Assembly: GCA_049510745.1 (NCBI GenBank)
Contig: JBEKYR010000010.1
Span: 1-64,000, forward strand
Direction of reading: 5' to 3'
From: Verrucomicrobiota bacterium
GTDB taxonomy: Bacteria > Verrucomicrobiota > Verrucomicrobiia > Limisphaerales > Palsa-1400
Length of the DNA stretch: 64,000 bases
The notes under the pieces were generated by a model, which was not told the origin of the DNA, did no database searches, and saw only the letters and a list, made by a program, of their open reading frames with translations. Made by a program: the position numbers and the translations under genes. The first letter of the stretch is position 1, and each line of letters opens with the position of its first letter. This document shows positions 1 through 58,955 of this stretch, piece by piece.

Positions 1-27
1 CTAACCATTACAGGAACTGCGAGTGGC

Positions 28-6017: not shown

Positions 6018-6170
6018 TTAATGCTGTGCAGGGAAGATGTCCTGAACTGAACAATGGAGCCGGTCCATGATTAGCTGGAGCTTTTTCAGCGTAATGCTCT
6101 GCTGGCCATTATCCAATCTGAACTGGTTGGAGGGAGTCATTCCGAGCATTTTGGTCAATATTTGGTCAAT
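6018..6170 (-). pseudogene. Truncated XRE/Cro-type HTH regulator
   Basis: 'KMLGMTPSNQFRLDNGQQSITLKKLQLIMDRLHCSVQDIFP' is the C-terminal part of an XRE HTH; the N-terminal helix is missing. Confidence 0.55.
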
Positions 6171-6381
6171 ATAGTATAGAACGTTCCATCTCTGCCCTGA
6201 TGCAGAGGGCATTGATCCCAGGGTGGTGGCGGATTGGCAGGGACACCGGGACGCTACGCTCATTCTGCGGGTCTATGGCGCTTGGGTGAATCAGGACCAT
6301 GCTCGGAGGATGGCGGCGTTAATGGCCTGACCACCCAGCCCTGCCAAGCCCCAAACCAGCCAGCGTCGCAGAACGGTCACG

Positions 6382-7830: not shown

Positions 7831-8202
7831 GAAATCTCACCTTTGATTTCGGGAACACGACCGGAAACAACCAGATGGACGTGCGAAACGTCTATTTCCT
7901 GGGAACTCCCGGTTTCTCCGGCACTGTTGGCCCGTGCAGACTCATTGACTTTGAACCTATCATAGCACGCTCATTCGTTCACAGTTTCCCAATTCTGTCA
8001 ATCCACACGTTTTGCTTATTGATTGGCAACATATGGTGACGTATTTGCCTCAACACCGGAGCGAGGTCTCATATTCACATGCAACGGGGCCATTGATCGT
8101 TGTCTTCCCGACCCCTCCCCCATCCAGAATCCCTCGTAAAATTGGGATAATAATTGGGTGACGATTTAGCTCGCAGCTTCTTCGACCACGTCACCCACGT
8201 CC

Positions 8203-8234
8203 AGCCCCGGTGCCTTAACCAGCATGGGGCTTTT
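8203..8234 (+). terminator. Intrinsic terminator-like hairpin upstream of the sigma-like gene
   Basis: AGCCCCGGTGC-cttaacca-GCATGGGGCT imperfect stem followed by a T run. Confidence 0.45.
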
Positions 8235-8268
8235 CGTTTCCATTAATCCCACACAAAAGGAATTTCAA

Positions 8269-8997
8269 ATGTCCCCAGAATCAGGATTTTTATTACAAGA
8301 TCAAATCGTCCCCCGCCTCGAATCCGCCATCCCACACAACGTCAATTTCGTCGGCAGTGAAGATGCCCAGGAATTGGTCCAAGACGCAACGTGTATCGCT
8401 GCGAAGATGATGCACAACGCTGAACTGGCAGGGAAGAAGGTGGTCCAGTCCGCAAGCAATCGAGGCAAAGCGGTCAAGCAGGTCAAAGAAGTCACAGCAG
8501 GCAACATCGCCTATTACACCATCGTCAAGCTCAGAAATGGACGGCGTTCAAATGGCTATGTCACGGCAGATGTCTATGGCGCTGGGACACAAATCAATGG
8601 CAGAACCCGCCTCACTTCACTGGATGAGGTCGTGGCCCAGGATGAGGAAACTGGCGGCGAGATCTTTCTGCTCCGTGACGTGCTGGCTGATGACCAAGAC
8701 GATCCAGCGACGAAAGCCACCCGCAAAATGGATTGGGAAATGTTCCTGGCTGGTCTGTCCGAGCGTGAGGTGCTCGCTATCCAATTCTTGGTGGAAGGCA
8801 AGACTCTCCGACACGCAGCTCATGTTTTGAGGACCAGCGATTCCTCGATGCAGGCCAGCAAACGAGATCTGAGAGCGAAGGTCCTCGAATTCATGGGCTT
8901 CGACATTCTGGCCCAAGTTCAACGCCGGCCTCAATGGAAGGACGGCCTGGATGCGACCAGGGAAAAGATGGCTGTGCGGTATGCTCGTTGCCATTGA
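8269..8997 (+). CDS. Sigma-factor-like / C-terminal HTH DNA-binding protein
   Basis: AAAGGA RBS before ATG 8269; 'EDAQELVQD' resembles sigma region 2; 'LSEREVLAIQFLVEGKTLRHAAHVL' is a sigma-4/LuxR-like HTH. Confidence 0.6.
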   Translation: MSPESGFLLQDQIVPRLESAIPHNVNFVGSEDAQELVQDATCIAAKMMHNAELAGKKVVQSASNRGKAVKQVKEVTAGNIAYYTIVKLRNGRRSNGYVTADVYGAGTQINGRTRLTSLDEVVAQDEETGGEIFLLRDVLADDQDDPATKATRKMDWEMFLAGLSEREVLAIQFLVEGKTLRHAAHVLRTSDSSMQASKRDLRAKVLEFMGFDILAQVQRRPQWKDGLDATREKMAVRYARCH

Positions 8998-9261
8998 CCA
9001 ACAACACTATGGCCAGGTTAATCCTCTGATTGATCGGGCTGCTTCTCATAATACCGCCCCGCCACCCACTTCTGTTACTCCTTGCTAAGGCTGAGTGATG
9101 GAGGCGGGTGGCGGGGCAGGTTGGAATCCAAAGCTTAGCTATGAGATTGTTTGATGCGGTAGCAACAACCACATCGGAGTTTTCGTGCCGGGTTGGTGCC
9201 GTTCGCACGCGCTGATCGCCGACGCCGTGGAATCCACCGCGGATATTTTCAGTTCCATCAG

Positions 9262-9404
9262 AGGTCAGCCGGGGGGGGCATAATAGCTGCCGCAGAAATT
9301 CCGCCCGGTTTCGATCAGCCCTTGAAGGATGCCGCGCCCCAGCATTAGCGATCCACCTCCCCGAGCACGATGTCGATGCTGCCCAGGATAATGACCACGT
9401 CCGT
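9262..9404 (-). pseudogene. nuoD: Fragment spanning the nuoD 3' end and a coupled nuoI-like 5' end
   Basis: Minus strand reads TDVVIILGSIDIVLGEVDR* (conserved NuoD C-terminus), overlapped via TAATG with MLGRGILQGLIETGRNFCGSYYAPP. Confidence 0.7.
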
Positions 9405-9589
9405 GGTTCACTCCCTTTCCGCTGCTGGTCTTTTCTCTCCGATATTTTCGTAAATTGCCGATGGCCCAAAGGTGTCTAAAGATGTCCCGTTATGGAATAG
9501 ACAAACAACACGCCCGCCACACAGTGAGATTAGGGAAATGGCTGTGACTATAGGAAATAATAACAAAAACTAATAACAAAAAGAATGCT

Positions 9590-9838
9590 ATGAAAAGAAT
9601 ATTTGAAACAGTGGCGAGTTATATTTTGTGCGTGAGTGCTTTCGGGTCGGTCTCCTACGATGCGCAAAATGGGCACTATTATGAAGTGGTTTCAGCTCCG
9701 GGGGTTGGTTGGATGAACGCCGAGCAGTATGCGCTGACTATGTATTATAACGGTTTAGAAGGCCATTTGGTGATCATCACTAGCGCCGATGAGAATGCCT
9801 CCGTTATGAATGTGGTCCAACGTGCTGGGTTATCATAA
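9590..9838 (+). pseudogene. Truncated secreted C-type lectin-like protein
   Basis: Signal peptide followed by 'NGHYYEVV...WMNAEQYA...GHLVIITSADEN'; stops before the WIG motif. Confidence 0.6.
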
Positions 9839-10194
9839 CGAATTCTTTTCGTCACACTACGAAACCCTAAATCTGCCTATCGAATATCGCACCGAAATAT
9901 CCGGGCAAAGCGCACCGGGCGCACCTCCAAAATCACGGTGATCGTGCCTTTCCGAGCGAAGATGAGTCGCGTTCGCCGGCCACCGCCCCCCAAAAAACGC
10001 CGCGCACACCCCCAAACCGCGGGCAATTTAATGAAAATCACGAGCGCAGATTTGCCAGAGATTTGCCAAATTTCCCACAAAATGACAGGAACGGAGAGAC
10101 AGGCGAATGCACCAAGATGCATACCGCAAAAACCGACAAACGCATAAAACCCTTTATTTACAGGCATTTTATGCGTATCCCCTTGAAAATGAAG

Positions 10195-20632: not shown

Positions 20633-20694
20633 ATTTAAAAATCAAAGTGTCGGCGGGAAAGGCGCACTCGTCAAGGGCGCAACGGCCCAATCAC

Positions 20695-20863
20695 GTAATG
20701 CCTCAGTGATGGGAAGGAAATGCGAAATTGAGCATACCCGCATTGAAAGCCGCAATGCGGGTATGCTAGGGTCGATTCTCTCTATTTGTCAAGGAAGATG
20801 TGCGGACGGCGAAATGAGAATTTTTTTAGGCTCCGCTTTTTCCCGCCGTCACTGAGGCATTAC
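20695..20863. mobile_element. MITE copy 1 (169 bp; 15-bp TIR GTAATGCCTCAGTGA)
   Basis: Perfect terminal inverted repeats; flanks CCAATCAC/CCAATTAC; near-identical inverted copy at 55741-55908. Confidence 0.9.
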
Positions 20864-20867
20864 CCAA

Positions 20868-44304: not shown

Positions 44305-46266
44305 TCAAGGAACGGAATTGTTCATGGCGCTTGCGGGGCGCGAAATGTCGTTGATTTTCCAATACACCGCATAACGCTCATGATGCAGTTGGTAGAATGG
44401 AACCAGTCGAATTTCCCGGCCCTCCGCAGTTTTCAATTGAAACGTGAGAGGCTTGCCTTTCACTGCCTTGGCACGGGCCAGCGCCGCATCCGGTGTGCCG
44501 GACAAAACCGGCGCTTCGGGCAGCGGCAATCTGGCGAAGTCCAATTGATCCCGCGCCTGTTGTCCCTGCGGCGGAAGGCCCTCGACGCCCAACTCGCCCG
44601 CCAGCACCACCGGGCCGTAGAGAAAGGCGATGTGTCTCGCGTCGCCGGGCAACGTTTCCAGACGCAAACGCATGGGCAGGCGCACCTCGACTTTGTCATG
44701 CTGGCCCCAAACGCGCTCGATGGTGAGATACGACTCCGGCCCGCTGGCGAGCTTTTGTTTCCGGCCATTGACCCGCACCATTATTTCCCCGGCCCACGCG
44801 GGGCGGCGGATGTGGAGCGCAAACTTCGCGGGCGAAGCGCAGTCAAAGGTCAGCGTTGTCATTTCCTGTTCGGGAAATCTCGTTTCCTGCCGGACCGTCA
44901 CCCCTTTTTCAGCCCAATGAAGTTCGGACGGGATGAACAGGTTTACGTAAAGCGCGTCCGCGCCGTGAAAATAAATGGTGTCGCCGTACTTGGCGTGGTT
45001 CTCCATGCCGGTGCCGACGCAGCACCAGAACGATTGCAGGGGGGTCGAGTAAGTTTTGAAACGTCCCGTTTGCAGCGGCACGAAATAAGTCATCATGCCG
45101 CTCTCCGGGTCTTGCGAGGCGAGGATCTGGTTGTAAAGCCCGCGTTCGTAGAAATCCATCAGCGTGGCGGACGATTCCCACTCAAACAAATGCCGCGTCA
45201 GCTTGAGCATGTTGTAGGTATTGCACGTCTCCGCGGTTGCCGGTGAAAGGTGTCTGGAGAAATCGTTGGTGGGGAAGAAATGCTCCCGGTCGCTGTCCCC
45301 GCCGATGACGTAAGAGCGGCTCGAGGCGACGCGTTGCCAGAAGAATTCGGCGATGTCATGAAACCGTTTGTCGCCGGTCAGCTCATATTGGCGCGCGGCG
45401 CCGGTGATCTTCGGGATCTGGGTGTTGGCGTGCAGTCCGTCCAGCTTGTCCTCGCCGGCGGCCAGCGGGGCGAACACCTTCTCGTGGTTGAAGGCCTGGG
45501 CCAGCTTGAGATGATCGGGATTGCCGGTGACCGCGTATAGGTTGGCGAGCACTTCGTTCATGCCGCCGTGTTCGTTGCCCAGGGCGCGCTGCATCTCTTC
45601 GGCGGAGAGCCGGTCAACGCGGAACTTGAGCCAGTCCGCCATGCGCGTGAGCACGTCGAGCGCCTGCGAGTTGCCGCAGTACTGATGCGTGTCCAGCAGG
45701 CCCGCCATGATTTTGTGCAGCGTATAATAGGGCGCCCAGACCCTTTGCGCTCGGTCCACCCGGTCAAAGAGAGATTCCGGATAGGCGGAAAGGAAACCTT
45801 TGTTAAAACCTTGCGCGGGCATGGCTTCCTGGCATTTGGCCAGTTCGGCGACGATATAGCCGGTCCGCTTTTTCAACTCCGCGTCGCCGGTGCTGGCGTA
45901 CATGAGGGCGCAGGCCGAAAGATAATGGCCCACGCTATGCCCGCGCAGTTCACAATTCGTTTGCTCCCAGCCGCCGAGCGGCTCGGCGGACGAGGGCAGG
46001 CCGGCCGTGACGCGAAAATTGTGCAGCAACCGGTCCGCATCCAGGCTCAACAAATAAGTCTTGTCGCTCAGCATGGCGTCGCGGAACGGGCCGTCGAGCA
46101 AGCGCACGTCTGCCAACGGGAACGGTTCCGCCTTCAACGCGATGACCGGAGAAATTTTTTCAATCGGCGCGGCGGCGGACGCCCTCTCGGGCGAACCCGC
46201 GAAAAGAACGAGGGCGGTGGAAACCAGAAAGGGCGAGGGAGGAAAAGGAAAACAGAATCGCTTCAT
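44305..46266 (-). CDS. GH127/GH146 beta-L-arabinofuranosidase-family hydrolase
   Basis: LRGHSVGHYLSA, EHGGMNE, HANTQIPK, AETCNTYNMLKL, FWCCVGTG. Confidence 0.93.
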   Translation of the reverse strand: MKRFCFPFPPSPFLVSTALVLFAGSPERASAAAPIEKISPVIALKAEPFPLADVRLLDGPFRDAMLSDKTYLLSLDADRLLHNFRVTAGLPSSAEPLGGWEQTNCELRGHSVGHYLSACALMYASTGDAELKKRTGYIVAELAKCQEAMPAQGFNKGFLSAYPESLFDRVDRAQRVWAPYYTLHKIMAGLLDTHQYCGNSQALDVLTRMADWLKFRVDRLSAEEMQRALGNEHGGMNEVLANLYAVTGNPDHLKLAQAFNHEKVFAPLAAGEDKLDGLHANTQIPKITGAARQYELTGDKRFHDIAEFFWQRVASSRSYVIGGDSDREHFFPTNDFSRHLSPATAETCNTYNMLKLTRHLFEWESSATLMDFYERGLYNQILASQDPESGMMTYFVPLQTGRFKTYSTPLQSFWCCVGTGMENHAKYGDTIYFHGADALYVNLFIPSELHWAEKGVTVRQETRFPEQEMTTLTFDCASPAKFALHIRRPAWAGEIMVRVNGRKQKLASGPESYLTIERVWGQHDKVEVRLPMRLRLETLPGDARHIAFLYGPVVLAGELGVEGLPPQGQQARDQLDFARLPLPEAPVLSGTPDAALARAKAVKGKPLTFQLKTAEGREIRLVPFYQLHHERYAVYWKINDISRPASAMNNSVP

Positions 46267-46272
46267 GGCGGC

Positions 46273-46301
46273 AGCATAATCCCCGGCCAAAACGCCGTCA
46301 A
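46273..46301 (-). promoter_or_regulatory. Sigma70-like promoter giving a leaderless GH127 mRNA
   Basis: TTGACG-17 bp-TATGCT-6 nt-ATG. Confidence 0.65.
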
Positions 46302-46357: not shown

Positions 46358-47500
46358 TCAGCGGCGGGCGGCGGCGACGACGGCGTCGAAGGCGGGCTTG
46401 GGCTGGCATTGCCGGTCGAAGAGCAGCGGGTAACTGGTCCGCCCGCGGACGGGCCAATTGTTGAGCCAGGAATGCGCGTCGCTCACTCCCCAGAATGTCA
46501 CCCGCGAAATCTGGGCGCGATGCCGGATGAATTCGCTGAAGAGATCGGCGTAGCGGGCGGCCAAAGCTTGTTGCACGGAATCGGGCAGGCCGTTGGTGTA
46601 AGGGTTCAGTTCCGCGCGCAATTGAAAACTCTCGGCCACGTCGGCGGCGACCGAGCGCGAGGCCGCCGGCAGCACGTCCACGTCCAATTCCGTGATCATG
46701 ACCTTGATGCCCAACTGCGAGAAGGCATCGATGGTCTCGCCCAGCGTCTGGCGGGTCGGCCAGTCCATTCTGTAATGACCCTGGATTCCAGCCGCCGCAA
46801 TCGGAATGCTGGCGGCTTGGAGCCGTTTGATCAGCGCAATCGCCCCGGCGCGTTTGGGGGCGAACTCAATCGAGTATTCGTTGTAATACAACTGGGCGTC
46901 CGGATCGGCTTCGCGGGCGAATTGATAGGCCTTGACCAGGTAATCGTCGCCGATGATTTTCAGCCAGCGGCTTTGGCGCAACGAACCGTCGTCGTCCACC
47001 GCTTCGTTGACCACGTCCCAGCCGTTGATCTTTCCTTTGTAGCGGCCGACGACGGTGAGAATATGCTCGCGCATGCGTTGGAGCAGCGTGTCCCGGTCCA
47101 CCTCTTTGCCATTCTCATCTTCAAAGACCCAGCGCGGCGTCTGATTGTGCCAGACCAGAGTGTGGCCGATGATAAACATGTGGTTCCGCCGGCCAAGGGC
47201 GACATAGCGGTCGGCCGGCTCGAAGTCGTAGCGGTTTGGTTCCGGGTGGATGTCACCCCATTTCAACGCGTTTTCGGGCGTGATGCTGTTGAAATGCTTT
47301 TGGATCAGCTTCCCCTCGCAATTTTCGTTGTCGGAGGCGGACAACTGTGTCGAGCCAAGGGCCGCGCCGATGAGGAAATCTCCCTTGAAGACCTCTTTCA
47401 AAGCGGGTTCATCGGTCGCGTTTGTCATGGGCAAATGGCAGCCTGTCACGAGGACGGTCAAAACGGGGGCAAGGTATTGCCTCAAAAGGCTTCGGGTCAC
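46358..47500 (-). CDS. GH10 endo-1,4-beta-xylanase, probable lipoprotein
   Basis: ENALKW, GHTLVWH, WDVVNEA (acid/base), ITELD (nucleophile); VTGC lipobox. Confidence 0.96.
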   Translation of the reverse strand: MTRSLLRQYLAPVLTVLVTGCHLPMTNATDEPALKEVFKGDFLIGAALGSTQLSASDNENCEGKLIQKHFNSITPENALKWGDIHPEPNRYDFEPADRYVALGRRNHMFIIGHTLVWHNQTPRWVFEDENGKEVDRDTLLQRMREHILTVVGRYKGKINGWDVVNEAVDDDGSLRQSRWLKIIGDDYLVKAYQFAREADPDAQLYYNEYSIEFAPKRAGAIALIKRLQAASIPIAAAGIQGHYRMDWPTRQTLGETIDAFSQLGIKVMITELDVDVLPAASRSVAADVAESFQLRAELNPYTNGLPDSVQQALAARYADLFSEFIRHRAQISRVTFWGVSDAHSWLNNWPVRGRTSYPLLFDRQCQPKPAFDAVVAAARR

Positions 47501-48993
47501 GGGGTCTGCGGCGCGAATTTTTTCCTTCGTTCGACCAGTTCATCCTGGATTTGCAGATTGAGCTTTTTGTCAATTCCGTAAAAGAACGCCAAGGCGACGA
47601 CGCCGACAAAAAATGTGATTGCCGGAACGACGCTGGCCGTGATGCGAATGCCGAGCAGCGAGTGGCCGGTTTGAACCGCGTTGGGCACGTAACCGAAACA
47701 GCCGATCAGCCAGCCGCAGATCGCGCCGCCCAGGCCCAGGCCGGCTTTCAGCGCGAACACGATGCCGGAGAACACCACCCCGGTGGCCCGGCGGCTGGTT
47801 TTCCATTCGGCGTAGTCCGCCACGTCCCCCATCATCGCCCACAGCAGCGGAATGGTGGGCGCATAAGACAGCGCGAGCAAAATGTTGAGCAAAAACATGA
47901 GCTTGACCGCGCCGGGCGGCAGGACGATGAACAGCGCGGCAAAAACGGAAGTTAAAAACAGGCCGGTGACGTACACGCCTTTTTTGCCGAAACGCGACGA
48001 GAGCATTGTGGAACACAGCACGCCGATGATGGTCAGCACTTGGGCGGACATGTTGAAAAACCCGAAGCCGACGGAAACGACATTTTTCTGATCGTCCGTT
48101 GCGATCAGTCCAAACGCATTGAGAATTCCGTGCCACCAACCGCCGGTGTTCAAAGCGGTCGTCACCATCCCGCACGATCGCAGCAGGTCAAACAGCCGCG
48201 TTTTGTCCACGTAATAGGTGAAATAATAAAACAGCGCCGTGCCGCGCAGCGCCAGTGTGGTGAACAAAAACAGCGTCAGCACGAACATCGCCTTCCACGG
48301 GCCGTTTTTCAGAAGATCGGCGAAGTCCTGCTTGAAGGACGGTTTTTGGGCCGGATCGGGATGAACGCGTTCCCGGGCGCTGAGAAATGTGATGACGAAA
48401 AAAACAATCGCGAGAATTGAAAATAATCCAATCGTCAGCGACCAGCCTTTGGCGTTGTCGCCGTGTCCGAATTTGTTGACGAGCGACAACGTCAATCCCT
48501 GCACGACGAACGTCGCGGCCATCGCAAAGAAAAAGCGGTAGGAAGACAGCCTGGTGCGTTCGTTCACGTCGCTCGTCATCACGCCGTTGAGCGCCGAATA
48601 CGGCAGATTGTTGACCGAATAAATGGTCATCAGCAGAAAATAAGTGACGTAGGCGTAAATGAGTTTTCCCGTCGCGCCACAATGCGGCGTCGTGAAAGTC
48701 AGCGTGAATAAAATGGCAAACGGCACCGCCGACCACAAAACCCACGGACGAAATTTCCCCCATCTCGTGTTGGTGCGGTCCGCCACCACCCCCATGAACG
48801 GATCGAAAAAGGCGTCCCAAAACCGCCCGAGCAGCAAAAGTGTTCCGGCGGCCGCGGCGCTGATTCCGAAGGTGTCGGTGTAAAAACCCAGTTGAAACAT
48901 CAGCATCGTTTGGAAAACAAAGTTGGCGCCGGCGTCTCCGAAGCTGTAGCCCACTTTCTCCCAAAACGAAATTTTTTGTCGCGGATCAATCAT
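47497..48993 (-). CDS. GPH-family (MFS_2) glycoside:cation symporter, XynT-like
   Basis: EKVGYSFGD, DRTNTRWGKFRPW, DVADYAEWK; overlaps the GH10 start. Confidence 0.93.
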   Translation of the reverse strand: MIDPRQKISFWEKVGYSFGDAGANFVFQTMLMFQLGFYTDTFGISAAAAGTLLLLGRFWDAFFDPFMGVVADRTNTRWGKFRPWVLWSAVPFAILFTLTFTTPHCGATGKLIYAYVTYFLLMTIYSVNNLPYSALNGVMTSDVNERTRLSSYRFFFAMAATFVVQGLTLSLVNKFGHGDNAKGWSLTIGLFSILAIVFFVITFLSARERVHPDPAQKPSFKQDFADLLKNGPWKAMFVLTLFLFTTLALRGTALFYYFTYYVDKTRLFDLLRSCGMVTTALNTGGWWHGILNAFGLIATDDQKNVVSVGFGFFNMSAQVLTIIGVLCSTMLSSRFGKKGVYVTGLFLTSVFAALFIVLPPGAVKLMFLLNILLALSYAPTIPLLWAMMGDVADYAEWKTSRRATGVVFSGIVFALKAGLGLGGAICGWLIGCFGYVPNAVQTGHSLLGIRITASVVPAITFFVGVVALAFFYGIDKKLNLQIQDELVERRKKFAPQTP

Positions 48994-49037: not shown

Positions 49038-49925
49038 CTACGAGGAATGCTTTTCCTTCAATCTCTTGGCGACATCCTCCATCGTTCCCTTGAAAGGTCC
49101 GGGTGTTTCCATCTTTATCGAAACCAGCGCGGCCGCGAATTTCAAGGATTCTTCCGCGTCATGATCCAGCCGGCGGGACAGGTAGGCCGCGAAGGTCGTA
49201 TCCCCGCGGCCGGTCCGGCCCGCCATGCTGTTGTTGGAGAACTTCTCATAGAGCGTCCGGCCGTTGACCCGCGCCAGCACGCCCTGGGCGTGCGTGATCA
49301 TGATTTCCGGGCAGCCCCAGGATTCGACAATGATTGCGGCCTTTTCCAGGTCCTCCGTTCCGGTCAGAATACGGGCTTCCACCACGTCCAGCTTGAGTTT
49401 GTCCATCATGCCCGCAATGTCTTTTTTATTTGAGACGTCGCTGAACTCTATGTCATGGGTCACCAGGGTGACGTGGCGGACGAAGCTCTGCATGTCGGCC
49501 GACAGGCTGTACCCCCGGGCCTTCAAACCCTTCATCAGAACCATGTCGAACTCGGTGTCGGAAATCCCGGCCAGATGAACGCACGTGGAGTTGAGCTTCG
49601 GCACGTCGCCAATCGCTATCAAGCCGGCGGTTTTGACCAGGGTCAACTTGCGCTCGTCCACGTTCGCGGATTCGTGCAGCACCCTCGAATAGGTCGTCTC
49701 CGCGCTCGGGATGACGTAGGTGTCCACACCCGCGTCCTTCATGGGCTGAAGGATGTTTTCATCCTTCTTCGCCATTTTGACGACGGCGGCAACTTTTTTC
49801 CCCACTCGCGCCGCCACCATGGCGCCGCACAGAACGGCGCTCCCCGGGGCGACGACCGGTCTGCCGCCGAAGGGAATGATCTCGTCGTAGCACATGTGCC
49901 CGACGAAGGTGATGTCGTAATTCAT
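49038..49925 (-). CDS. PfkB/ribokinase-family sugar kinase
   Basis: APGSA N-terminal motif; C-terminal 'GRTGRGDTT' anion-hole motif. Confidence 0.88.
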   Translation of the reverse strand: MNYDITFVGHMCYDEIIPFGGRPVVAPGSAVLCGAMVAARVGKKVAAVVKMAKKDENILQPMKDAGVDTYVIPSAETTYSRVLHESANVDERKLTLVKTAGLIAIGDVPKLNSTCVHLAGISDTEFDMVLMKGLKARGYSLSADMQSFVRHVTLVTHDIEFSDVSNKKDIAGMMDKLKLDVVEARILTGTEDLEKAAIIVESWGCPEIMITHAQGVLARVNGRTLYEKFSNNSMAGRTGRGDTTFAAYLSRRLDHDAEESLKFAAALVSIKMETPGPFKGTMEDVAKRLKEKHSS

Positions 49926-49932
49926 AAACGCG

Positions 49933-52473
49933 TCAATCCTCTTTTATCAGCCCGGACAGGAATGACATCAAGGACTCTGAAACAATGATGGTCGCGCCCT
50001 TTTGCGCTTGCCTCTCTTTGATATGCTGCAGGACCAGGTGCGTCCAGACGGCGCCTGGCCGGGGATAGGCGGCGACGATGTAATGGGGTCCGGGGGCGGA
50101 TTCTCCCGCTTCCTTTTCCAACTCAGCCCGGAGGTTGTCCGGGGTGATCATGGAATTGCCGTAATCGAACACCACCCTGTCCATGTGCTTATAGACGTCC
50201 TTACTCTCTTTTACCATGCCGTAGTAATCCAAAAGCTGGGCGAAGACGTAATTGGAAGTGGTGTAAACGTCCTTGCCCTGGTCCGATTCCACCGGCTGGC
50301 CGTCCTCCGTGCGGGCCATGGCCCAGCCCATGAAGGTGCGGTTGTTCTGGTAGATCGTCTTCAGAATCTTCCTGGCACGATCCTCCGGAATGAAGGACTC
50401 TTCGCCGATGGCAATCAAGTACCAGAGGGCGTCCAGTTGGTTGGTCCACACATCCGTGTTGGTTTTCCCCGTGGCCGGATCGAAACAGGTGACGTAATAC
50501 TGGAGCGGGTCGCCCTTTTTATTTTTTCCGTCCCGCCATAGCTTCTCGAAGCTCGCCCGGGCCTTGTCGAACGCAGTCTGAATCCGCGCCCTGGCGGGTT
50601 GGTCGTTCAACATTTCCGCCATGGTAACCATGGCCTGGCACCCGGCCAGGAAGGTCGTGGCGTCATAGGCGTCCGCTCCGAAGAGCACCAGGTTGTCGAA
50701 GGTGTTCTTCACCTCGTCTGGATAGCCCTCGGGCACCCCGTCGCCGTCATAGTCCTGCTTGAGCAGGAATTCCAGCCCGAATTTGAGCGTCTCCCAATTC
50801 TTCTTGAGAAACTCGGTGTCTCCCGTGAACTTCACATTGCGCAGCACGCGCATCGCCAGCTTGGGGAAAAGGTCCACCCAGTAGTTGTTGTTGTACCAGG
50901 CATAATCGCTGACGTTGCGCAGGGCATGGCCCTTGGGCAGGGCGCCGACGTCGTGCGCCACGCTGCCCTTGACCTTGAAGGCGTCCCGGATTTGGGTCAT
51001 CGACGTGCCCTCGTATTCCTCCGGATGCTCTTGGAAATGCTTTCTGGCTTCCACGAACGAGGAGTGGAAGTGGTAGAAGCGCGGGGTGGGGTCCTCGGCC
51101 TGAATGGAGTCGATGAATCTCTGGCAAAGCTCCTTTTCCACGCGCGGGAACAGGATCAGAAGCACCATGGAATACCAATCCACATCCGATGGATTGATGT
51201 ACGCGTAGTCGAAGCATTCAAGGAACCGTGCCCGCTCATTGCCCTGGTCGTCTTCAACCCAGACGGCGCCGTTTGACAATGGGAAATGGAACTCGTTGAG
51301 CATCAGGCGGGTCAGGCGCAGGGCGCCGGCCCTGTCCTCCTTGTAGGAGGGGCTTGCCTGGATGAAATCCAAAATCCGTTTCTGAAATTTCACCGTCCGG
51401 TCCCACCAGTGCGGATATCTCTCCAGGGCCAGCTTCGCCATGTCGATGACCCGCTCCTCCTTGTCCGCGAAGCTCCTGACGTATTTGCGCTCGAACTTCG
51501 CCCCGTCAACGAAGACCTGTTCCGGGAAGTCCAGGACAACGGCCACGGGAATTCTTTTCGTCGCGCCCGGCTCCAGCGTGAAGGTCAGGCTGAGCGCCGC
51601 TCCGTAATCGCTCTTGGGAAGCGGCTGCCGTTTTTCGTAGAAGCTGCCGTCCGCATTCAAAAGGAGATCCTGGCTGCACCGGTTCAGGCAGAAATAGGGC
51701 TGGATGTCCACCGCAACGCCGGGCGTTTCGGCGACTGCCAGCGCCATCCGGTTCAGGCTTTCCGTGCTTGCCATCACTACTCCCCGCGCATTCGCGGACC
51801 GAAACTCTTTATGCGCATGGCCGTGGACAGGGGCCGAACAGATATAGACGCTGTCCTGGTCAGTCGGTTTAAGCTCCTTTTCCTGGAGGTTGACCAGGGA
51901 CGGCCTGGGCACCACGAGCGTGATCTCCTGGGCCTTGTCCGCGGCGTTTTCCACCTCGAACTCTTCAACGCCCAGTGGCATCGACGTCTCGGCTCCACCC
52001 GACAGGAAGGGGGAAACCAGTCTTCTGGTTACTTTCACCTTCCCCAGCTTATAGGCAATCTCCAGCGATGGCGTGGCGATGGTGAGGGAAACGTTTCTTT
52101 CCGCAATCGGGGGATGGTAGTAGTTCTCAATGGCCGGGATGTCGTCGGGAGCCTCGGGGCTTTGCGGCTTTCTTTGCGTGAGCATGGTGAACTTGCCGCC
52201 GATGCGCACGAAGGGCGCGGAGGCGAATTGGATCGCCTTTTGGTTCAGCAGGATGAGCCGGCCCGCGTCGTTCAGGCGGTTGTACAGACCGTAGGGGGAA
52301 ATGCCGACCGAGCAGGTGGGCGCCCCTTGCAGGGCCACCGTTTGCGGGAACTGCAGGGTCTTGGACATGCCCTGGAAGTGGACCGTCATTTTGTTTTGTT
52401 CGTAAATGGCGGCGATTCTGGCTCCCGCGATGGTGTAAATATCGCGCACGTCGAATGCAGCGGATTTCGGCAT
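49933..52473 (-). CDS. Divergent GH116-family glycoside hydrolase, cytoplasmic
   Basis: FLECFDY (nucleophile Glu), HDVG, WVDL, NTFD (acid/base Asp), YPRP; no signal peptide. Confidence 0.8.
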   Translation of the reverse strand: MPKSAAFDVRDIYTIAGARIAAIYEQNKMTVHFQGMSKTLQFPQTVALQGAPTCSVGISPYGLYNRLNDAGRLILLNQKAIQFASAPFVRIGGKFTMLTQRKPQSPEAPDDIPAIENYYHPPIAERNVSLTIATPSLEIAYKLGKVKVTRRLVSPFLSGGAETSMPLGVEEFEVENAADKAQEITLVVPRPSLVNLQEKELKPTDQDSVYICSAPVHGHAHKEFRSANARGVVMASTESLNRMALAVAETPGVAVDIQPYFCLNRCSQDLLLNADGSFYEKRQPLPKSDYGAALSLTFTLEPGATKRIPVAVVLDFPEQVFVDGAKFERKYVRSFADKEERVIDMAKLALERYPHWWDRTVKFQKRILDFIQASPSYKEDRAGALRLTRLMLNEFHFPLSNGAVWVEDDQGNERARFLECFDYAYINPSDVDWYSMVLLILFPRVEKELCQRFIDSIQAEDPTPRFYHFHSSFVEARKHFQEHPEEYEGTSMTQIRDAFKVKGSVAHDVGALPKGHALRNVSDYAWYNNNYWVDLFPKLAMRVLRNVKFTGDTEFLKKNWETLKFGLEFLLKQDYDGDGVPEGYPDEVKNTFDNLVLFGADAYDATTFLAGCQAMVTMAEMLNDQPARARIQTAFDKARASFEKLWRDGKNKKGDPLQYYVTCFDPATGKTNTDVWTNQLDALWYLIAIGEESFIPEDRARKILKTIYQNNRTFMGWAMARTEDGQPVESDQGKDVYTTSNYVFAQLLDYYGMVKESKDVYKHMDRVVFDYGNSMITPDNLRAELEKEAGESAPGPHYIVAAYPRPGAVWTHLVLQHIKERQAQKGATIIVSESLMSFLSGLIKED

Positions 52474-52506: not shown

Positions 52507-54354
52507 TCAGCACTTGCCTCCGAAGGCGAAGCCTTTTTTCCGCGCCGGTTTTTCCGCGGTCTTCTTCGCGGGCGCCGCGGTTTCAGCGCCGGCCAGTGCC
52601 TTTTCCTTGCTCAGGTCGATCGGCATCTTCGTTGACGGATAAGCCTTGACAGCCCCGAAGAGCAGGTCCGCGGCGACCCGGATCGAATCGGGGGAGCCTG
52701 AGAAATTGCAGACCACCGCATCGGCCTCTAGGGTCGTGCCTTTGAGATAAGGGAAGTTCGTCACCACAACCACGGTGTGTCCGGCGTCTTTCAACGCCTT
52801 CACCAAGCCTTGGTTGTTGCCTCTCTTTTCGATGCGGGCGTAGTAGTTGGTCATGACGACCATCTCCGCTTCCTTCGCCAGCTCGAGTGCTTGTGCCACG
52901 TCCTCGTCGCTGGCGTGGAACCCCGTGTCGGCCAGGATGAGGTTGATGGAGTGTTTGGCCATCTGTTCGCAGAACATGTGGGGATGACTGTAGAGGTCCT
53001 TTCCCAGGAAGGGATACGGAATGAGCTGCTCGATGACCAGGATCTTCTTGTCCTTGCTCAACGGCAGCAGTTTCTTGTCGTCGCGCACCACCAGAAGGGC
53101 TTTATGGGCCACTTCCCGGGAGAAATCCATCACTTCCTTGCTCCTGACGATGGCCTTGGTCTTCTCCGGATCCATTTTCCCGGCTTTTTTGAACAGACCC
53201 TGGTCGTACTTCATGCACAGAAGCCGCCGGACCGCGTCGTTGAGCCGCTCTTCGGAAAGCTCTCCGCGCTCGATGGCGCTCTTGATGCCGAAGAGGCACT
53301 GCGAGCGGGATTCGTCGTCCGCCTTGAGCAGGATGGTGTCCACGCCCGCCTTGATCGCCAGGGCGCACGCCTGGGGGAGCGGCCACTTTTTCAGGATGGC
53401 CGCCATGCCGATGGCGTCCGAGACGATAACGCCTTTGAACCCCATTTCTCCCCTGAGAAGATCAGTGAGGATTTTGGATGACAGGGTGGCGGGGAACTCT
53501 TTGTCGAAGGGCGGGAAGATCGTATGGGCCGTCATGAGGGCCTTCGCGCCCGCGTTGATGCCGGCCTGGAAGGTCACCAGCTCCACTTCGCGCATGCGCT
53601 TGAGATCCGCCCGGCAGACGTCCAGCACGTCGTGCGCGTCGGTCGCCGAATCGCCGCGGCCCGCGAAGTGTTTGACCGTGGCGACAATGCCGGCATCCTG
53701 ATACCCGCGCACCGTCGCCTCCACGTACTTCGCGCAGACCTTCGGATCATCGCCGAAGGAGCGCACGCCGATTTCGGGGTTCAACGGGTTGATATTGACG
53801 TCGCAGACCGGGTGATAGAACTGCGTTACTCCGATGGCGGCCATCTGCCGGCCCAGCGTATTGGCCACTTTATAGGCAAGATCGACGTCTCCAATGGCGG
53901 TCATTCCCATGGGCGGCGGGAACTGTATGACGTGACCGGAGGTGTAGTCGTTTTTGAAATCGCCTTCCATGTCGATGGTGATGTGCAGGGGGATGCCGGA
54001 GGGCCGGCTCATGGCGATTTCCTGCAGCTTGTTGAGGGCGGCCGTCAACTCTTCCGGAGACACGCTCACGCCGTAGTTATGATCGTCGAAATAGGTGTGC
54101 GCGATGTCGAAATAGTCCTTGGGCTTCTTGAAGTTGGGGTCCACCTGCGAACGCCCCCAATACAGGTTCTTGCATGTTTCCAGCGCGTACGGCTCCAGGC
54201 AAAGGCCGCCGGCGTGCAGTTTGGTGACCTGTTCGACCCCCGAGGGCGTCAGGTAAGCCCCGCGCCAGGTGAAGGTCAAAACCTGGCCGCATTTTTCCGC
54301 CAGGGTCATTTTCGCCACCTTCGCTGAAACAAAATCGTCTCTTTCCTTCGACAT
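52507..54354 (-). CDS. GH3 two-domain NagZ-like glycosidase, cytoplasmic
   Basis: IDMEG, IGVRSFG, KHFAGRGDSATDAH, MTAH, IVSDAIGM; no signal peptide. Confidence 0.92.
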   Translation of the reverse strand: MSKERDDFVSAKVAKMTLAEKCGQVLTFTWRGAYLTPSGVEQVTKLHAGGLCLEPYALETCKNLYWGRSQVDPNFKKPKDYFDIAHTYFDDHNYGVSVSPEELTAALNKLQEIAMSRPSGIPLHITIDMEGDFKNDYTSGHVIQFPPPMGMTAIGDVDLAYKVANTLGRQMAAIGVTQFYHPVCDVNINPLNPEIGVRSFGDDPKVCAKYVEATVRGYQDAGIVATVKHFAGRGDSATDAHDVLDVCRADLKRMREVELVTFQAGINAGAKALMTAHTIFPPFDKEFPATLSSKILTDLLRGEMGFKGVIVSDAIGMAAILKKWPLPQACALAIKAGVDTILLKADDESRSQCLFGIKSAIERGELSEERLNDAVRRLLCMKYDQGLFKKAGKMDPEKTKAIVRSKEVMDFSREVAHKALLVVRDDKKLLPLSKDKKILVIEQLIPYPFLGKDLYSHPHMFCEQMAKHSINLILADTGFHASDEDVAQALELAKEAEMVVMTNYYARIEKRGNNQGLVKALKDAGHTVVVVTNFPYLKGTTLEADAVVCNFSGSPDSIRVAADLLFGAVKAYPSTKMPIDLSKEKALAGAETAAPAKKTAEKPARKKGFAFGGKC

Positions 54355-54581
54355 AATGTATCAATTCAATAATTGTTTTATGACTTTGCCCTGTTCGCAC
54401 CGATCGCGGTCGCCAGGTCCGACGCGGAGCTTGCGCAAAACGACATGGGCCTTGACGACTCCCGCGCCTCGAAAGTCTCCGATTCGGTTCTTATTCCCGC
54501 AACTTTGGGGTTTGGAATGTCGGCACGTCAAGCGATATTATTGAGCCAACAGCGACGCGCCGCCGGGCAGTTTTAGACCGC

Positions 54582-55631
54582 TCATTTTGCCGGCGAATTA
54601 AACGCCGCCAGCGCTTCCAACATGGCCAGGATGTTCTGCCGCGGCATGCCCGGACTGACGCCCCCGCCGAGCGACAGGATGAGGCCTTGGCCCCCGCTTT
54701 TTTCCAGGACATCGAGCGTGGCCCGGCGCACTTCCTGGGGCGTGCCACGGACGCCCACCTCCAGCGGGTTGACGTTGCCCATGAGGCACATTCGATGACC
54801 GACCCGCGCCTTGACTTCCGCGATGTCCGTTTGCTTGCCCCAGTTCAGCACGTTAAACCCGCAGTCCGGAAGATGCTCCAGGCACACGGCGATGGAAGCG
54901 TCGTTATGATAAATCTTGACCCAATCCTTCGGAAACGCGTCGCAGATTCTTTTCAGGAACGGGTGGGCGAATTCCTGGTAATGCTCCTCGCTGATAAAGC
55001 CGACAATATCGTCGAGGATGAAAATGCCCTCGACGGTGGGGCCGATGATTTTCGCCTGCGCCTTCAGCCAGTCAATAACAAGACGCGCGCAAAGGTCGAT
55101 CAATTTGCGCGCCCACTCCGGCTCCTCCACCAGGTCCATCATGAAATCGGTCGTGCCGCGGACGAACGCGGCCGTGCAAAGCGGCCCGCGGGAGGTGACC
55201 AGCGGCAGAATCTCCCCCTGGTCGAGGATGCGCTGTTTCTGCATCTTAATGCGGTGCAGCGTCAGCCCCATAAAGGCGTCGCTCTCCACCTCATATGGGG
55301 GGAACTTCTCCAGGTCTTCGATGCGGCAGAGGGTGTGGTCGGCGCCGGGGGTGTTGTTCGGCCAGAATTTGATCCTGGCCCCCAGCGCCGAAGGCTCGGC
55401 CGCCATGCCGTATTCCATCCACCACGAGGGAACGAAGATGATCCCGGGAAACTCCCGATGAATCTTCAGGTTCGACTGGAACCAAAGCTCCGGGTCCAGA
55501 TAATAATCCAGGTGGTTCAACCCGAGGTAACCGGGAATCCACGGGCTGTCAATAATCAGCGCCAGGGGGATTTTCTCCAGCTTTTCCAGGCGGGCCGCTT
55601 TCTTGAATATCTCCCACTGTTCAGGTCTCAT
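54582..55631 (-). CDS. Uroporphyrinogen decarboxylase-fold protein (MtaA/CmuA methyltransferase-like)
   Basis: AEPSALG, GPLCTA, HND, CLMGNVNP, ILSLGGG; lacks the HemE W(F/L)MRQAGR motif. Confidence 0.85.
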   Translation of the reverse strand: MRPEQWEIFKKAARLEKLEKIPLALIIDSPWIPGYLGLNHLDYYLDPELWFQSNLKIHREFPGIIFVPSWWMEYGMAAEPSALGARIKFWPNNTPGADHTLCRIEDLEKFPPYEVESDAFMGLTLHRIKMQKQRILDQGEILPLVTSRGPLCTAAFVRGTTDFMMDLVEEPEWARKLIDLCARLVIDWLKAQAKIIGPTVEGIFILDDIVGFISEEHYQEFAHPFLKRICDAFPKDWVKIYHNDASIAVCLEHLPDCGFNVLNWGKQTDIAEVKARVGHRMCLMGNVNPLEVGVRGTPQEVRRATLDVLEKSGGQGLILSLGGGVSPGMPRQNILAMLEALAAFNSPAK

Positions 55632-55740
55632 GTGTTGGGGCGGGGCGGCGGAAGTGGCGTTTGAGGTTCATGGTTCGGCTCTTTAGAGGGCTGATTTTCC
55701 CTTCCAGTTTGGAGATTGCAAGTGGAAAAAGCGCCGGCAG

Positions 55741-55908
55741 GTAATGCCTCAGTGACGGCGGGAAGAAGCGGAGCCTAAAAAAACTCTCATTTCGCCGTCT
55801 GCACATCTTCCTTGACAAATAGAGAGAATCGACCCTAGCATACCCGCATTGCGGCTTTCAATGCGGGTATGCTCAATTTCGCATTTCCCCCCATCACTGA
55901 GGCATTAC
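55741..55908. mobile_element. MITE copy 2 (168 bp), inverted relative to copy 1
   Basis: Same TIR GTAATGCCTCAGTGA; flanks GCCGGCAG/GCTGGCAG. Confidence 0.9.
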
Positions 55909-56081
55909 GCTGGCAGACGAGGCTCCGAGGCTCCGGGAAATCGAGAAAATCCATTGACACACGGCGGGGTCTGCGGCGATACAATTCGAGACATGAACAA
56001 TTCCCCTTCTGGCCCATCCGCCTGTCGCAACCGTTGGGCCGGTTGCCGGCGGGAGACTGCGGCGGGAGAGGCCGCCGGGAA

Positions 56082-58955
56082 ATGAAAAGTCTTTCTGCCG
56101 CCGTTTGGCTGACGCTTCCGCTCTGCCTGGGCCTGCGCCCGGCCCTGGCAATCGGAGAAGCCCCGTACGTCTCCACCCATTCCAGCGCCGGTTCCTTTGC
56201 CCTGGCCGCCGGCGGTTCTGTTCCCTCCATTTATGTTGACACAAATGAGTTCTGGGGCGTGGCCCGCGCCGCGGGGGATTTGCAGGCGGACCTTCAGCGT
56301 GTCACCGGCGTCACACCGGCCCTGACCCACGACGAAAAACTCGCGGGCGCCAACGTCATCCTCATCGGCGCCCTTGGCCAAAGCCGCCTGATCGATCAAT
56401 TGGCGCGCGAGGGCGCCATTGATTCAGCCCGGATTGCCGGCAAATGGGAATCGTTTCTCGTCCAAGTCGTGCCGCATCCGCTGCCGGGCGTGAAGAAGGC
56501 GCTGGTCATTGCCGGGAGCGACAAACGCGGAACCATTTACGGCATTTACGATCTGTCACAGCAGATGGGCGTCTCCCCGTGGTCGTGGTGGACGGATGTT
56601 CCGGTCCGGCATCACGACGCCCTGTTTGTCAAGGCCGGGGCGTTCGTTCAAGGCCCCCCGGCGGTCAAGTATCGCGGCATCTTCTTGAATGACGAAGCGC
56701 CCGACCTCACCGGGTGGGCGCATGAAAAATTCGGCGGTTACAACCATGCCTTCTACACCAACATCTTCCAACTGCTGCTGCGCCTGAAGGCCAATTACCT
56801 TTGGCCCGCCATGTGGGACAATTGCTTCAGCGAGGACGATCCGTTGAATCCCAAGCTGGCCAACGACTACGGCATCGTCATGGGCACTTCCCACGTCGAA
56901 CCGATGATGCGGGCGGACAAAGAATGGAACCGGAAAGGGTACACGGCGGCGCAATGGAATTACGACAAAAACCCCTCGGAACTGCGCGCCTTTTGGAGGG
57001 AGGGCATCCAACGGAACAAGCCTTACGAAAACATCATCACCATTGCCATGCGCGGCAAGATCGACACCCCGATGAGTCAGAGCGCCAACATCGCCTTGCT
57101 GGAAAAAATCGTCGGCGTCGAGCGGGACATCATCCGCGATGTCCTGGAAACCAACGCGGCGTCCGTGCCCCAGCTTTGGGCGCTCTACAAGGAGGTGCAG
57201 GAGTATTACGAGAAAGGGATGCGGGTGCCCGACGACGTGACGCTGCTGTGGTGCGATGACAATTGGGGCAATATCCGCCGGCTGCCCACCCCGGAGGAGC
57301 GCGGCCGCGCCGGCGGCGCCGGCATTTACTACCACTTGGACTACGTCGGCGGGCCGCGAAATTACAAATGGCTCAACTCGACACCGATTACAAAAGTGTG
57401 GGAGCAGATGAACCTGGCCCTCAATTACGGCGCGGACCGCATCTGGATCGTCAACGTCGGCCACCTTCACCATGTCACCTTTCCGGCGGAATTCTTTCTG
57501 ACCCTGGCCTGGGACCCGGCGCGATGGCCCAAGGAACGGATTTCCGAATTCACCCGGCTCTGGGCGGAACGAGAATTTGGCCCCGCCCACGCCCCGGAAA
57601 TTGCGCAAATCATGGCCCAATACACCAGATTTAACGGCCGCCGCAAACCGGAACTGCTGGACCAATCCACCTTCAGCCTCATCGATTACCAGGAGGCTGA
57701 CAGTGTGCTGGCGGACTGGAAATCCCTCGCCACGCAAGCCGAAGGCCTTGAGCGCGAACTGCCGCAAGAGGCCCGCGACGCCTTCTACGAGCTGGTGCTG
57801 CACCCCGTCAAGGCCTGCGCCGTGGTCAATGAACTTTACATCGCGGCGGCCAAAAGCCGTTTGTATGCCAGCCAGGGCCGCGCCAGCGCCAACGACTGCG
57901 CCGCGCAGGCCCGCGCGCTGTTCCAGGCCGACGCCGATTTGTCCTCCTATTTCAATCACACCCTCGCCCACGGCAAATGGGACCACATGATGGACCAGAC
58001 GCACATCGGTTACACCTATTGGCAGGAGCCGCCGTCGAATTCGATGCCGAAGGTTGCCGAGATCAAAATTCCGCGCGAGGCCGCGCTGGGGGTGGCGGTG
58101 GAAGGTTCCACCAATGCCTGGCCCGGCTCGCCGGAGCCGGCGGCGCTGCCGCCCTTCGATGCGTTCAGCCGGGGGCGGCATTACCTGGATGTTTTCAACC
58201 GCGGCCAGACGCCCTTTGCGTTCACGGCCAGCGCCGGCGCTCCGTGGATCCGCCTGAGCGCGACCCACGGCACGGTCGCGCGCGAGCAACGCATTTGGGT
58301 GGACATCGATTGGAGCCGCGCGCCCAAGGGCCGGGCTGAGGGCGGCGTTGAGATTCAGAGCGCGGGCGCGGGGCCTGTGACTGTCCACATCTATGCCTTC
58401 CAGCCCCGCGAGCCGTCGCGCGGCTCGCTGCGGGGGTTTGTCGAAGCCGGCGGTTGCGTGTCGATCGAAGCCGGGCACTACACCCGCAAGGTGGACACGG
58501 CGGGGGCGCGCTGGGAAGAAATTGACGAGTACGGCCGCACCCTTTCCGCGATGGCCATTTTCCCGCCCACGGCTGCGAGCCTTCTGCCGCCCGCCGGCGC
58601 GCCGTGCCTGGAATATCGCATGTACCTTTTTGACACCGGCAAGGTCAAGGTCGAGTCGATCCTTGCGCCGACGTTGAGTTTTGTTCCGGGCCGCGGCCTG
58701 CGTTATGCCATCTCGTTCGACGACCAGCCGCCCCAGGTGGTGGACGCCCTGGCGCACAACACGCTCAGAGACTGGGAAACGAGCGTCAAAGACAGCGTCC
58801 GGAAAGTGGCCTCCGATCACACCATCAGCCAGCCCGGCTACCATACCTTGAAGTTCCGGATGATCGATCCGGGAATTGTCCTGGAAAAGCTGGTGGTGGA
58901 TTTTGGGGGAGCCAGGCCGAGTTATCTGGGGCCGCCTGAAACTTACCATCGGTAA
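56082..58955 (+). CDS. GH115 xylan alpha-(4-O-methyl)glucuronidase
   Basis: [38 protein letters not shown]; signal peptide from ATG 56082. Confidence 0.95.

Follow-up and report, generated by a model that had tools for sequence, protein, structure and literature searches.

A zinc-site-less MtaA-like methyltransferase encoded beside a GH115 alpha-glucuronidase is a candidate for corrinoid-dependent demethylation of xylan-derived 4-O-methyl-glucuronate

The subject of this report is a gene for a 349-residue URO-D-fold protein of a Verrucomicrobiota bacterium. It lies in a window of 64,000 nt, the whole stretch of DNA analyzed, from contig JBEKYR010000010.1 (C10) of the 5.6-Mb genome GCA_049510745.1, an assembly that is 94% complete. 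As the first-pass annotation of this DNA had stated, the gene is divergent from, and head-to-head with, a gene for a GH115 (glycoside hydrolase family 115) alpha-glucuronidase about 450 bp away, which is the only GH115 gene in the genome. It heads a minus-strand run of xylan-related genes, and the glycosidases, sugar kinase, transporter and GH10 said to follow it were found in the order GH3, GH116, PfkB-type kinase, glycoside-pentoside-hexuronide:cation (GPH) symporter and GH10 (Table 1). Neither flank of the URO-D gene showed a terminator-like site by which it would be cut off from the GH3 gene. The genomic context of its relatives, described below, supports well the view that this protein family is tied to corrinoid-dependent demethylation and to glucuronoxylan.

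By sequence, the URO-D protein is an MtaA/CmuA-like methyltransferase and is neither HemE nor a classical MtaA. Its score with the hemE equivalog model TIGR01464 is 62.3 bits against a cut-off of 302.95, and a genuine hemE that scores 327.9 bits with the same model resides on contig C36, so the earlier remark that the gene lacks the HemE motif was sound. Alignments with UROD proteins of the PDB cover residues 78-341 only, with E values of 1e-12 or worse. Models of the MtaA/CmuA type gave higher scores than hemE but also remained far below their cut-offs (TIGR01463, 90.5 bits versus 235.4; PRK06252, 95.8 bits versus 244). An AlphaFold2 model calculated from 65 sequences (pLDDT 96.5) gave MtaA of Methanosarcina mazei (PDB 4AY7, 4ay7_A) as the first-ranked Foldseek match (E 7e-19, TM 0.82/0.84), ahead of human UROD (TM 0.79).

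A paralogue encoded on contig C14 aligns residue for residue with the H-I-C and G-C motifs of 4AY7, and it was used to locate the corresponding site in the window protein. In MtaA, the H-x-C...C residues bind zinc and the thiol. In the alignment, H242-N243-D244 of the window protein stands opposite H-I-C of the paralogue, and G323 stands opposite the paralogue's other cysteine, in agreement with the HND...GGG motif read earlier from the DNA. Because one cysteine is replaced by Asp244 and the second by Gly323, the thiol-binding site is lost. H242 is invariant in 65 of 65 aligned sequences, and the pattern of H-N-D/E plus G-G-G reaches relatives at only 26-43% identity. The window copy keeps H242, N243, D244, D207, G285, N286 and G322-324, and it also retains every residue near H242, D207, G285-N286 and G323 that 80% or more of 58 distant relatives have in common.

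Table 1. Features of the window around the methyltransferase gene. Domain calls on open reading frames (ORFs) are Pfam (PF) bit scores, with additional NCBIfam and PDB sequence comparisons.
Feature	Position	Strand	Evidence or remark
URO-D-fold, MtaA-like methyltransferase gene, 349 aa	54582-55631	-	PF01208 150.8 bits, full-length match
Divergent intergenic region between methyltransferase gene and GH115	55632-56081		
Repeated element resembling a miniature inverted-repeat transposable element (MITE-like), ~170 bp	55740-55908		Terminal inverted repeats
GH115 alpha-glucuronidase with signal peptide	56082-58955 (listed ORF from 55869)	+	PF15979 501.9 bits, PF17829 (GH115_C) 198.9 bits
GH3 glycosidase, no signal peptide	52507-54354	-	PF00933 238.4 bits; 227 bp downstream of methyltransferase gene
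GH116-family glycosidase	49933-52473	-	PF04685 164.6 bits, PF12215 68.8 bits
PfkB-type sugar or sugar-acid kinase, TM0415-like	49038-49925	-	PDB 7e4l, 1vk4, 5ysp, E 8e-36 to 3e-34
GPH/MFS_2 symporter	47497-48993	-	PF13347 304 bits; TIGR00792 390.3 bits (cut-off 231)
GH10 xylanase, lipoprotein-like signal	46358-47500	-	PF00331 329.7 bits
GH127 beta-L-arabinofuranosidase family protein	44305-46290	-	PF07944 460.7 bits

Relatives of this protein are numerous and closely similar. A word-indexed search returned 2398 of them, and the best 120 are 79-84% identical to the window protein and come from sources named as KSB1, Bacteroidota and Clostridia. At least 553 genomic relatives were recovered by a scan of one genome per species. 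The family occurs in at least seven phyla; going by record titles, the best 80 loci of that scan come from Verrucomicrobiota, Ignavibacteriota, Bacteroidota, Acidobacteriota, Planctomycetota, Gemmatimonadota, Chloroflexota and KSB1. In a library clustered at 50% identity it forms essentially one cluster, whose full-length representative is 75% identical to the window protein. The next full-length relatives beyond that cluster are at most 43% identical, and the relatives at 35-43% in the protein collection all carry generic names. One tight cluster of this kind suggests one conserved substrate.

Gene neighborhoods were compared for the best 80 loci from the genomic scan (77-84% identical) by clustering their ORFs, annotating representatives and counting genes by tblastn. 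A corrinoid protein of 219 residues (B12-binding_2 plus B12-binding), hereafter the family carrier, is encoded in 77 of the 80 loci, and in 74 of the 79 where there is room for it, its gene immediately follows the URO-D gene. It is conserved like the methyltransferase itself, with a mean pairwise identity of 82%. These counts, along with the fold match to MtaA, bear out the assignment in the first-pass annotation of the protein to the MtaA/CmuA-like, corrinoid-linked group. Each of the 80 loci, like the window, has a single URO-D gene. A RACo-type activase is present in 57 loci, a 431-aa accessory protein in 59 (e.g., L005:8344-9639) and a 108-aa accessory protein in 63 (e.g., L021:13282-13608). 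Neither accessory protein gave a Pfam, NCBIfam or PDB sequence match, and ESM Atlas groups the larger one with clusters named 'methionine synthase activation region' (score 0.96). Note that the N-terminal half of the 431-aa protein resembles the MetH activation domain and its C-terminal half is cysteine-rich, and that the genes for both accessory proteins almost always accompany RACo.

Homocysteine S-methyltransferase genes occur in 48 of the loci, and genes for a pterin-binding methyltransferase and an MTHFR-like protein in 29 each. Sorted by acceptor module, 33 loci have the homocysteine enzyme only, 14 the pterin-binding enzyme only, 15 both and 18 neither. Because the URO-D protein and its carrier form the constant pair and the acceptor modules vary, the URO-D protein is probably the loading enzyme, that is, the donor-side methyltransferase (MT I). 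In the 33 loci that have only the homocysteine enzyme it is the sole candidate for this role, and in the 14 that have only the pterin-binding enzyme with the MTHFR-like gene, methyl-folate as the donor for the URO-D protein would create a futile loop. Moreover, four of five genomes with a minimal module encode full-length MetH as well (the fifth has fragmented MetH matches, and none of the five has MetE), which argues against equating the module with the housekeeping methionine synthase. An MtaA-like unloading role is likewise disfavored, because the thiol site has been lost.

The link to glucuronoxylan rests on what else lies near these genes. At least one of GH67, GH115, CE15 (carbohydrate esterase family 15) or UxuA is encoded within 10 kb in 34 of the 80 loci, so the co-occurrence with glucuronidases expected from the first-pass annotation was indeed found. 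The window genome holds five such genes, which places one in ~1.9% of random 21-kb windows, and relative to this rough, single-genome background the enrichment is roughly 20-fold. GH67 or GH115 is present in 13 of the 80 loci, CE15 in 17 and GH28 in 11, the last at a median gap of 602 bp. Also recurrent are GH43 beta-xylosidase, GH10, GH3, a GntP permease and a YjhG/YagF-type xylonate dehydratase, together with polysaccharide lyase, GDSL esterase and BD-FAE-type esterase genes. Where the module lies away from carbohydrate-active enzyme (CAZyme) genes, the genome encodes both GH67 and GH115 (5 of 5). Among 201 genomes sampled from the phylum, four carry the URO-D gene and all four have GH115 within 22 kb of it, compared with 29 of 201 that have GH115 at all; only this physical proximity counts, since the positives are kin in which GH115 is common and are too few for a co-occurrence statistic. 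Together with the status of the window's GH115 gene as the only one in its genome, this proximity places the adjacency above chance.

The window itself lacks the carrier. No corrinoid protein is encoded in it, as had been cautioned from the outset, and the sole B12-binding match on the contig (C10:144226-144339) is 88 kb away. Neither the cognate corrinoid protein nor the cognate RACo, 431-aa and 108-aa genes were found in the 94%-complete genome, and a tblastn search of the whole genome with the family carrier (E 1e-5) revealed no carrier remnant in the 227 bp that follow the URO-D gene. The genome's only RACo is encoded on contig C14 (PF14574, 228 bits; 29% identical to the family RACo), an orthologue of the homocysteine S-methyltransferase stands alone on C28 (70% identical to the family enzyme), and MetH is encoded on C45. 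A stand-alone pterin-binding methyltransferase was not found in the genome.

Two further loci of the genome encode corrinoid proteins. On C50 (33122-36408; L097), a corrinoid protein gene cut off at the contig end accompanies an MtaB homologue (PF12176, 491 bits), a weakly URO-D-like protein of 387 residues, a NagB/6-phosphogluconolactonase-like gene and a Major Facilitator (MFS) transporter gene. From its gene content, this locus reads as a methanol-type methyltransferase set inside a verrucomicrobial sugar operon, and the genome of the relative L072 has a near-identical carrier-MtaB pair (93% and 91% identity to the C50 pair). On C14 (1-5870; L096), the MtaA-like paralogue that keeps H-x-C...C is followed by DUF1638, a GH120-like beta-helix protein, the RACo and a corrinoid protein cut off at the contig start. 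The ends of C10 (143945-144344), C14 (1-400) and C50 (36009-36408) have an identical 122 bp in common, inside corrinoid-protein genes, which indicates that the assembly broke at two or more MtaC-like carrier paralogues. At the DNA level, the two corrinoid N-terminal halves share 89% identity; of the C-terminal halves, one was either collapsed or left out of the assembly. The copy on C10 is preceded by a gene for a 916-aa protein of no recognized family.

A missing carrier is rare in the family. Only 3 of the 80 relatives have none within 10 kb, and the carriers encoded in their genomes are 44-48% identical to the family carrier. In a quick maximum-likelihood tree with SH-aLRT support only, the window copy groups with two of these, both from Verrucomicrobiota (SH-aLRT 98). 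The third, from the cultured Opitutaceae bacterium EW11 (L058; branch 0.26), represents an independent carrier loss, and its gene is found beside GH115 and UxuA. End branches within the carrier-less verrucomicrobial clade measure 0.21-0.38 versus a median of 0.057. In the alignment, 177 columns are each unchanged in 76 or all 77 of the linked sequences. There the four orphans show 7-10 changes, whereas linked copies show at most 6 (median 0). Y98 and V321 are changed in both independent orphan lineages, and V321 adjoins the G-G-G site. The ratio of nonsynonymous to synonymous substitution rates (dN/dS) is 0.13 between the window copy and its nearest orphan, L072, and 0.05 for a linked pair at similar dS. 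Thus, the orphan copy evolves faster than linked copies yet stays under purifying selection. From this pattern we infer a working enzyme that may have adapted to another carrier.

The interval between the two divergent genes holds a repeated element that affects how the GH115 gene is read. The ~170-bp element has terminal inverted repeats and an internal stem-loop, and 14 further copies (161-200 bp, 76-97% identity) plus shorter partial matches occur in the genome, including a second copy in the window at 20694-20864. In four peat metagenomes its depth is 4-10x higher, with numerous loose ends at each border. A promoter-like TTGACA-18-TAGCAT at 55812-55841 within it is directed at GH115, and the element also supplies a spurious upstream ATG for that gene. 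The true GH115 start is probably 56082 rather than 55869, because a signal-peptide-like N terminus begins there, relatives align only from 56109, and 55869 lies inside the repeat element.

Peat metagenomes of several studies contain 58-94% of the sampled words of the stretch. Their contigs are short (up to about 1 kb), and the junction between the URO-D and GH3 genes is tiled by overlap rather than spanned by one contig: in metagenomes X5, X6 and X9, contigs covering 54269-54490 and 54462-55428 overlap by 29-30 bases, with no extra sequence at the junction in the tiling contigs. Because of this tiling and the recurrence across studies, the gene arrangement is no single-sample assembly artifact. 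In X5 and X6, one contig each leaves the window sequence at 54499, which falls in the gap that separates the URO-D stop codon from GH3. Another neighbor is thus present at this position in a related strain or organism. As for the remaining genes of the run, the PfkB-type kinase gave no Pfam match even at E 1; its homologue TM0415 of Thermotoga is a keto-sugar-acid kinase of an inositol pathway. The G+C content of the window is 51-55% over positions 1-10000 versus about 58-66% beyond.

These observations lead to a reading that we favor tentatively, at somewhat less than even confidence: the window protein would be a cytoplasmic, zinc-site-less MtaA-like methyltransferase that moves a methyl group to corrinoid cobalt from a methylated uronic acid of xylan origin, the likeliest being the 4-O-methyl-D-glucuronate released by the neighboring GH115. 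Judged from gene content, 4-O-methyl-glucuronate is the best candidate for the donor, and 4-O-methyl-glucuronic acid caps a large share of hardwood xylan side chains. GH10 and GH115, both with signal sequences, would act outside the cytoplasm, and the GPH symporter would import glycosides or the uronic acid. The methyltransferase would then bind 4-O-methyl-glucuronate on the barrel face, with H242 and D244 forming an acid or metal site for the leaving oxygen, and Co(I) of the docked carrier would accept the methyl group. The carrier in this organism might be an MtaC-like corrinoid protein from another contig, repaired when oxidized by the RACo-type activase on C14, and unloaded to homocysteine by the C28 S-methyltransferase orthologue to give methionine. 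The demethylated glucuronate would enter uronate catabolism. For the family as a whole, we hold still more loosely that it may be an O2-independent, B12-dependent O-demethylase for 4-O-methyl-glucuronic acid that feeds methyl groups to the methionine or folate pool, and that the peat clade was rewired to an MtaC-type carrier shared with the methanol-activating MtaB homologue. Of the demethylation step for methylated sugars that was first proposed here, the corrinoid coupling and the enrichment of glucuronate genes have held up, and the identity of the methyl donor stands as a candidate only; the decarboxylation offered as its alternative gained no support.

Several observations weigh against assigning the enzyme to 4-O-methyl-glucuronate. 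Attack by Co(I) on a sugar (aliphatic) methyl ether suffers from a poor leaving group, which makes a methyl-ester donor a serious rival. None of the four uronate markers lies within 10 kb in 46 of the 80 loci, and some loci are found beside histidine or aspartate-pathway genes (aspartate kinase, aspartate-semialdehyde dehydrogenase). The frequency of CE15 and GH28, when set against that of the alpha-glucuronidases, fits uronic-acid methyl esters or lignin esters equally well. The three other positives of the phylum sample are all members of a single family, and GH115 occurs in 11 of the 15 genomes of that family. In the window genome, the best corrinoid proteins are 43-53% identical to the family carrier, and the window copy has 10 changes at the near-invariant columns. 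We infer, and purely so, a partnership of the orphan enzyme with another carrier encoded in this genome. In addition, the characterized UroD-fold MT I enzymes named in the accessible text of PMC13222342 act on aryl methyl ethers or methyl halides.

That last point also favors a loader of the same class with another donor from the plant cell wall, such as methyl esters of galacturonic or glucuronic acid, other O-methylated sugars, or methoxylated aromatics of lignin from lignin-carbohydrate esters. A carboxylate, as released from a methyl ester, is a far better leaving group than a sugar ether oxygen, CE15 and GH28 are the most frequent and closest of the CAZyme neighbors named, and the lyase and esterase genes recur. 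We nevertheless regard another donor as unlikely, although it is the alternative that most deserves attention, because the CAZymes of the window are of the xylan type only (GH115, GH10, GH3 and GH127) with no pectin or aromatic-catabolism genes, because GH67, GH115 and UxuA indicate free uronic acid rather than aromatics, and because the single tight cluster suggests one substrate. Much less probable is a disassembled methionine synthase in which the protein serves as the methyl-donor module and draws on a central donor such as methyl-tetrahydrofolate, with the xylan link incidental. The hub does resemble MetH in pieces (homocysteine domain protein, corrinoid protein and the activation-region-like 431-aa protein), and the aspartate-pathway neighbors noted above would suit it. 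However, the 29 loci with a pterin-binding methyltransferase, 14 of them without a homocysteine methyltransferase, and the full-length MetH of the minimal-module genomes speak against such a role. The window genome has its own MetH and yet keeps a lone URO-D gene beside GH115, and the enrichment of uronate genes would be left unexplained.

A role in unloading (MT II) onto a non-thiol acceptor, for example of methyl groups captured from methanol by the MtaB-like/MtaC-like pair on C50, is a little less probable again. The nearest solved structure is that of an unloading enzyme, and the genome has an MtaB homologue beside a corrinoid protein and no stand-alone pterin-binding methyltransferase; but the thiol-activating site is gone, the 33 related loci with the homocysteine enzyme only would be without any loading enzyme, and no acceptor suggests itself. 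We give marginally less credence to an orphan that has left corrinoid chemistry altogether, either by decay or by taking up a reaction that needs no cofactor, with a uronic acid or xylo-oligosaccharide as substrate. Its long branches, its changes at otherwise invariant columns and the missing cognate partners are what such a history might leave. Against this stand the intact frame, the dN/dS values of 0.05-0.13, the retention of all conserved residues around the site, and the presence in the genome of RACo, the orthologue of the homocysteine methyltransferase and two or more corrinoid protein genes. Finally, we put almost no weight on a second uroporphyrinogen decarboxylase. The Pfam URO-D domain and the database name 'uroporphyrinogen decarboxylase' point that way, but the low equivalog score, the partial UROD alignments, the true hemE on C36 and the operonic pairing of the orthologues with corrinoid proteins do not.

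If demethylation of 4-O-methyl-glucuronate by this protein is correct, it would be the first non-oxidative sugar demethylase and would supply a missing step in how bacteria exploit the acidic side chains of hardwood xylan. The literature searched, which did not extend to subscription journals, held no description of a corrinoid-dependent sugar demethylase or of the fate of the methyl group of 4-O-methyl-glucuronate. A corrinoid route would account for the presence of a near-invariant B12 cassette at xylan loci across many phyla of soil and peat bacteria; through it, the breakdown of plant cell walls would bear on methionine supply, the demand for B12 and the peat methyl pool. Should the rewired carrier indeed be shared with the MtaB homologue, hemicellulose decay would be tied to methyl cycling in methane-producing peat. 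The window is an incomplete example of the family, and it is informative for that reason: the methyltransferase gene remains beside the alpha-glucuronidase gene after loss of the hub, which argues that the substrate comes from the xylan side chain rather than from methionine metabolism.

Among known systems, the closest structural relative is MtaA of Methanosarcina (4AY7/4AY8). The two proteins have the URO-D TIM barrel and the same length in common, H242 falls at the histidine of H-x-C, and orthologues of the URO-D protein adjoin a corrinoid protein. Unlike MtaA, to which it is 19% identical, the window protein has Asp244 and Gly323 in place of the cysteines, and its predicted direction is the opposite one (loading). 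We know of no coenzyme M in bacteria of this kind. HemE has the Pfam domain and the fold in common with the window protein, whereas the window protein scores below the equivalog cut-off, the genome has a hemE of its own, and the orthologues are operonic with corrinoid proteins.

With respect to function, the nearest precedents are the MT I enzymes of O-demethylase systems and CdmB, the chloromethane enzyme of Acetobacterium dehalogenans (PDB 9RUI), which according to the accessible text of PMC13222342 is a UroD-fold MT I that works without zinc. CdmB therefore provides a precedent for a zinc-free UroD-fold loader. It belongs to the same superfamily and, as far as that text goes, takes the same substrate-to-carrier role that we predict here, within a system of MT I, carrier, MT II and activase. 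It differs in its weak sequence match (9rui, E 7e-8, residues 154-341) and, as described there, in its 429 residues with extensions, its hydrophobic channel and its known substrates, which are methyl halides and aryl methyl ethers and not sugars. The family also differs from these systems in its acceptors, which are the homocysteine methyltransferase and/or the pterin-binding enzyme with an MTHFR-like gene. Compared with the four-part arrangement, the window lacks the carrier beside the methyltransferase, and the activase and an acceptor methyltransferase are encoded elsewhere in the genome.

Two other bacterial systems resemble the family in organization. The MtgBCD hub of Ruegeria pomeroyi, which in the portion of PMC12478193 available serves both glycine betaine demethylation and methionine synthesis, likewise has one corrinoid protein common to a substrate-specific loader and to folate/homocysteine modules, and it too occurs outside strict anaerobes. 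Its loader is a member of the MttB superfamily acting on glycine betaine, whereas here a URO-D fold is found in polysaccharide loci and the hub is absent beside the window gene. Type 1 mlp clusters are defined, in the available text of Kountz and Balskus (PMC10418091), by the clustering of at least Mlp2 and Mlp3 with a corrinoid protein and Ram/RACE; they have two or three Mlp paralogues, are 73% from Firmicutes and have proposed methyl-sulfur or methyl-selenium substrates. Like the family, they combine bacterial MtaA-like URO-D proteins with a corrinoid protein and an activase, often without a folate methyltransferase. A single URO-D gene per locus, other accessory genes and the carbohydrate context set the family apart from them and outside that definition. 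A different solution to the same problem is offered by the P450 sugar demethylases of marine bacteria, which remove the methyl ether that blocks catabolism of 6-O-methyl-galactose and were the sole sugar demethylases to emerge from the literature searched. As reported in the accessible part of PMC6292453, they are oxygen-dependent monooxygenases that release formaldehyde; their fold is unrelated, and the corrinoid route proposed here would be O2-free and would conserve the methyl group. In gene set and carbohydrate context, the family is thus distinct from MtaA, from UroD-fold MT I enzymes including CdmB, from MtgBCD and from type 1 mlp, none of which has either.

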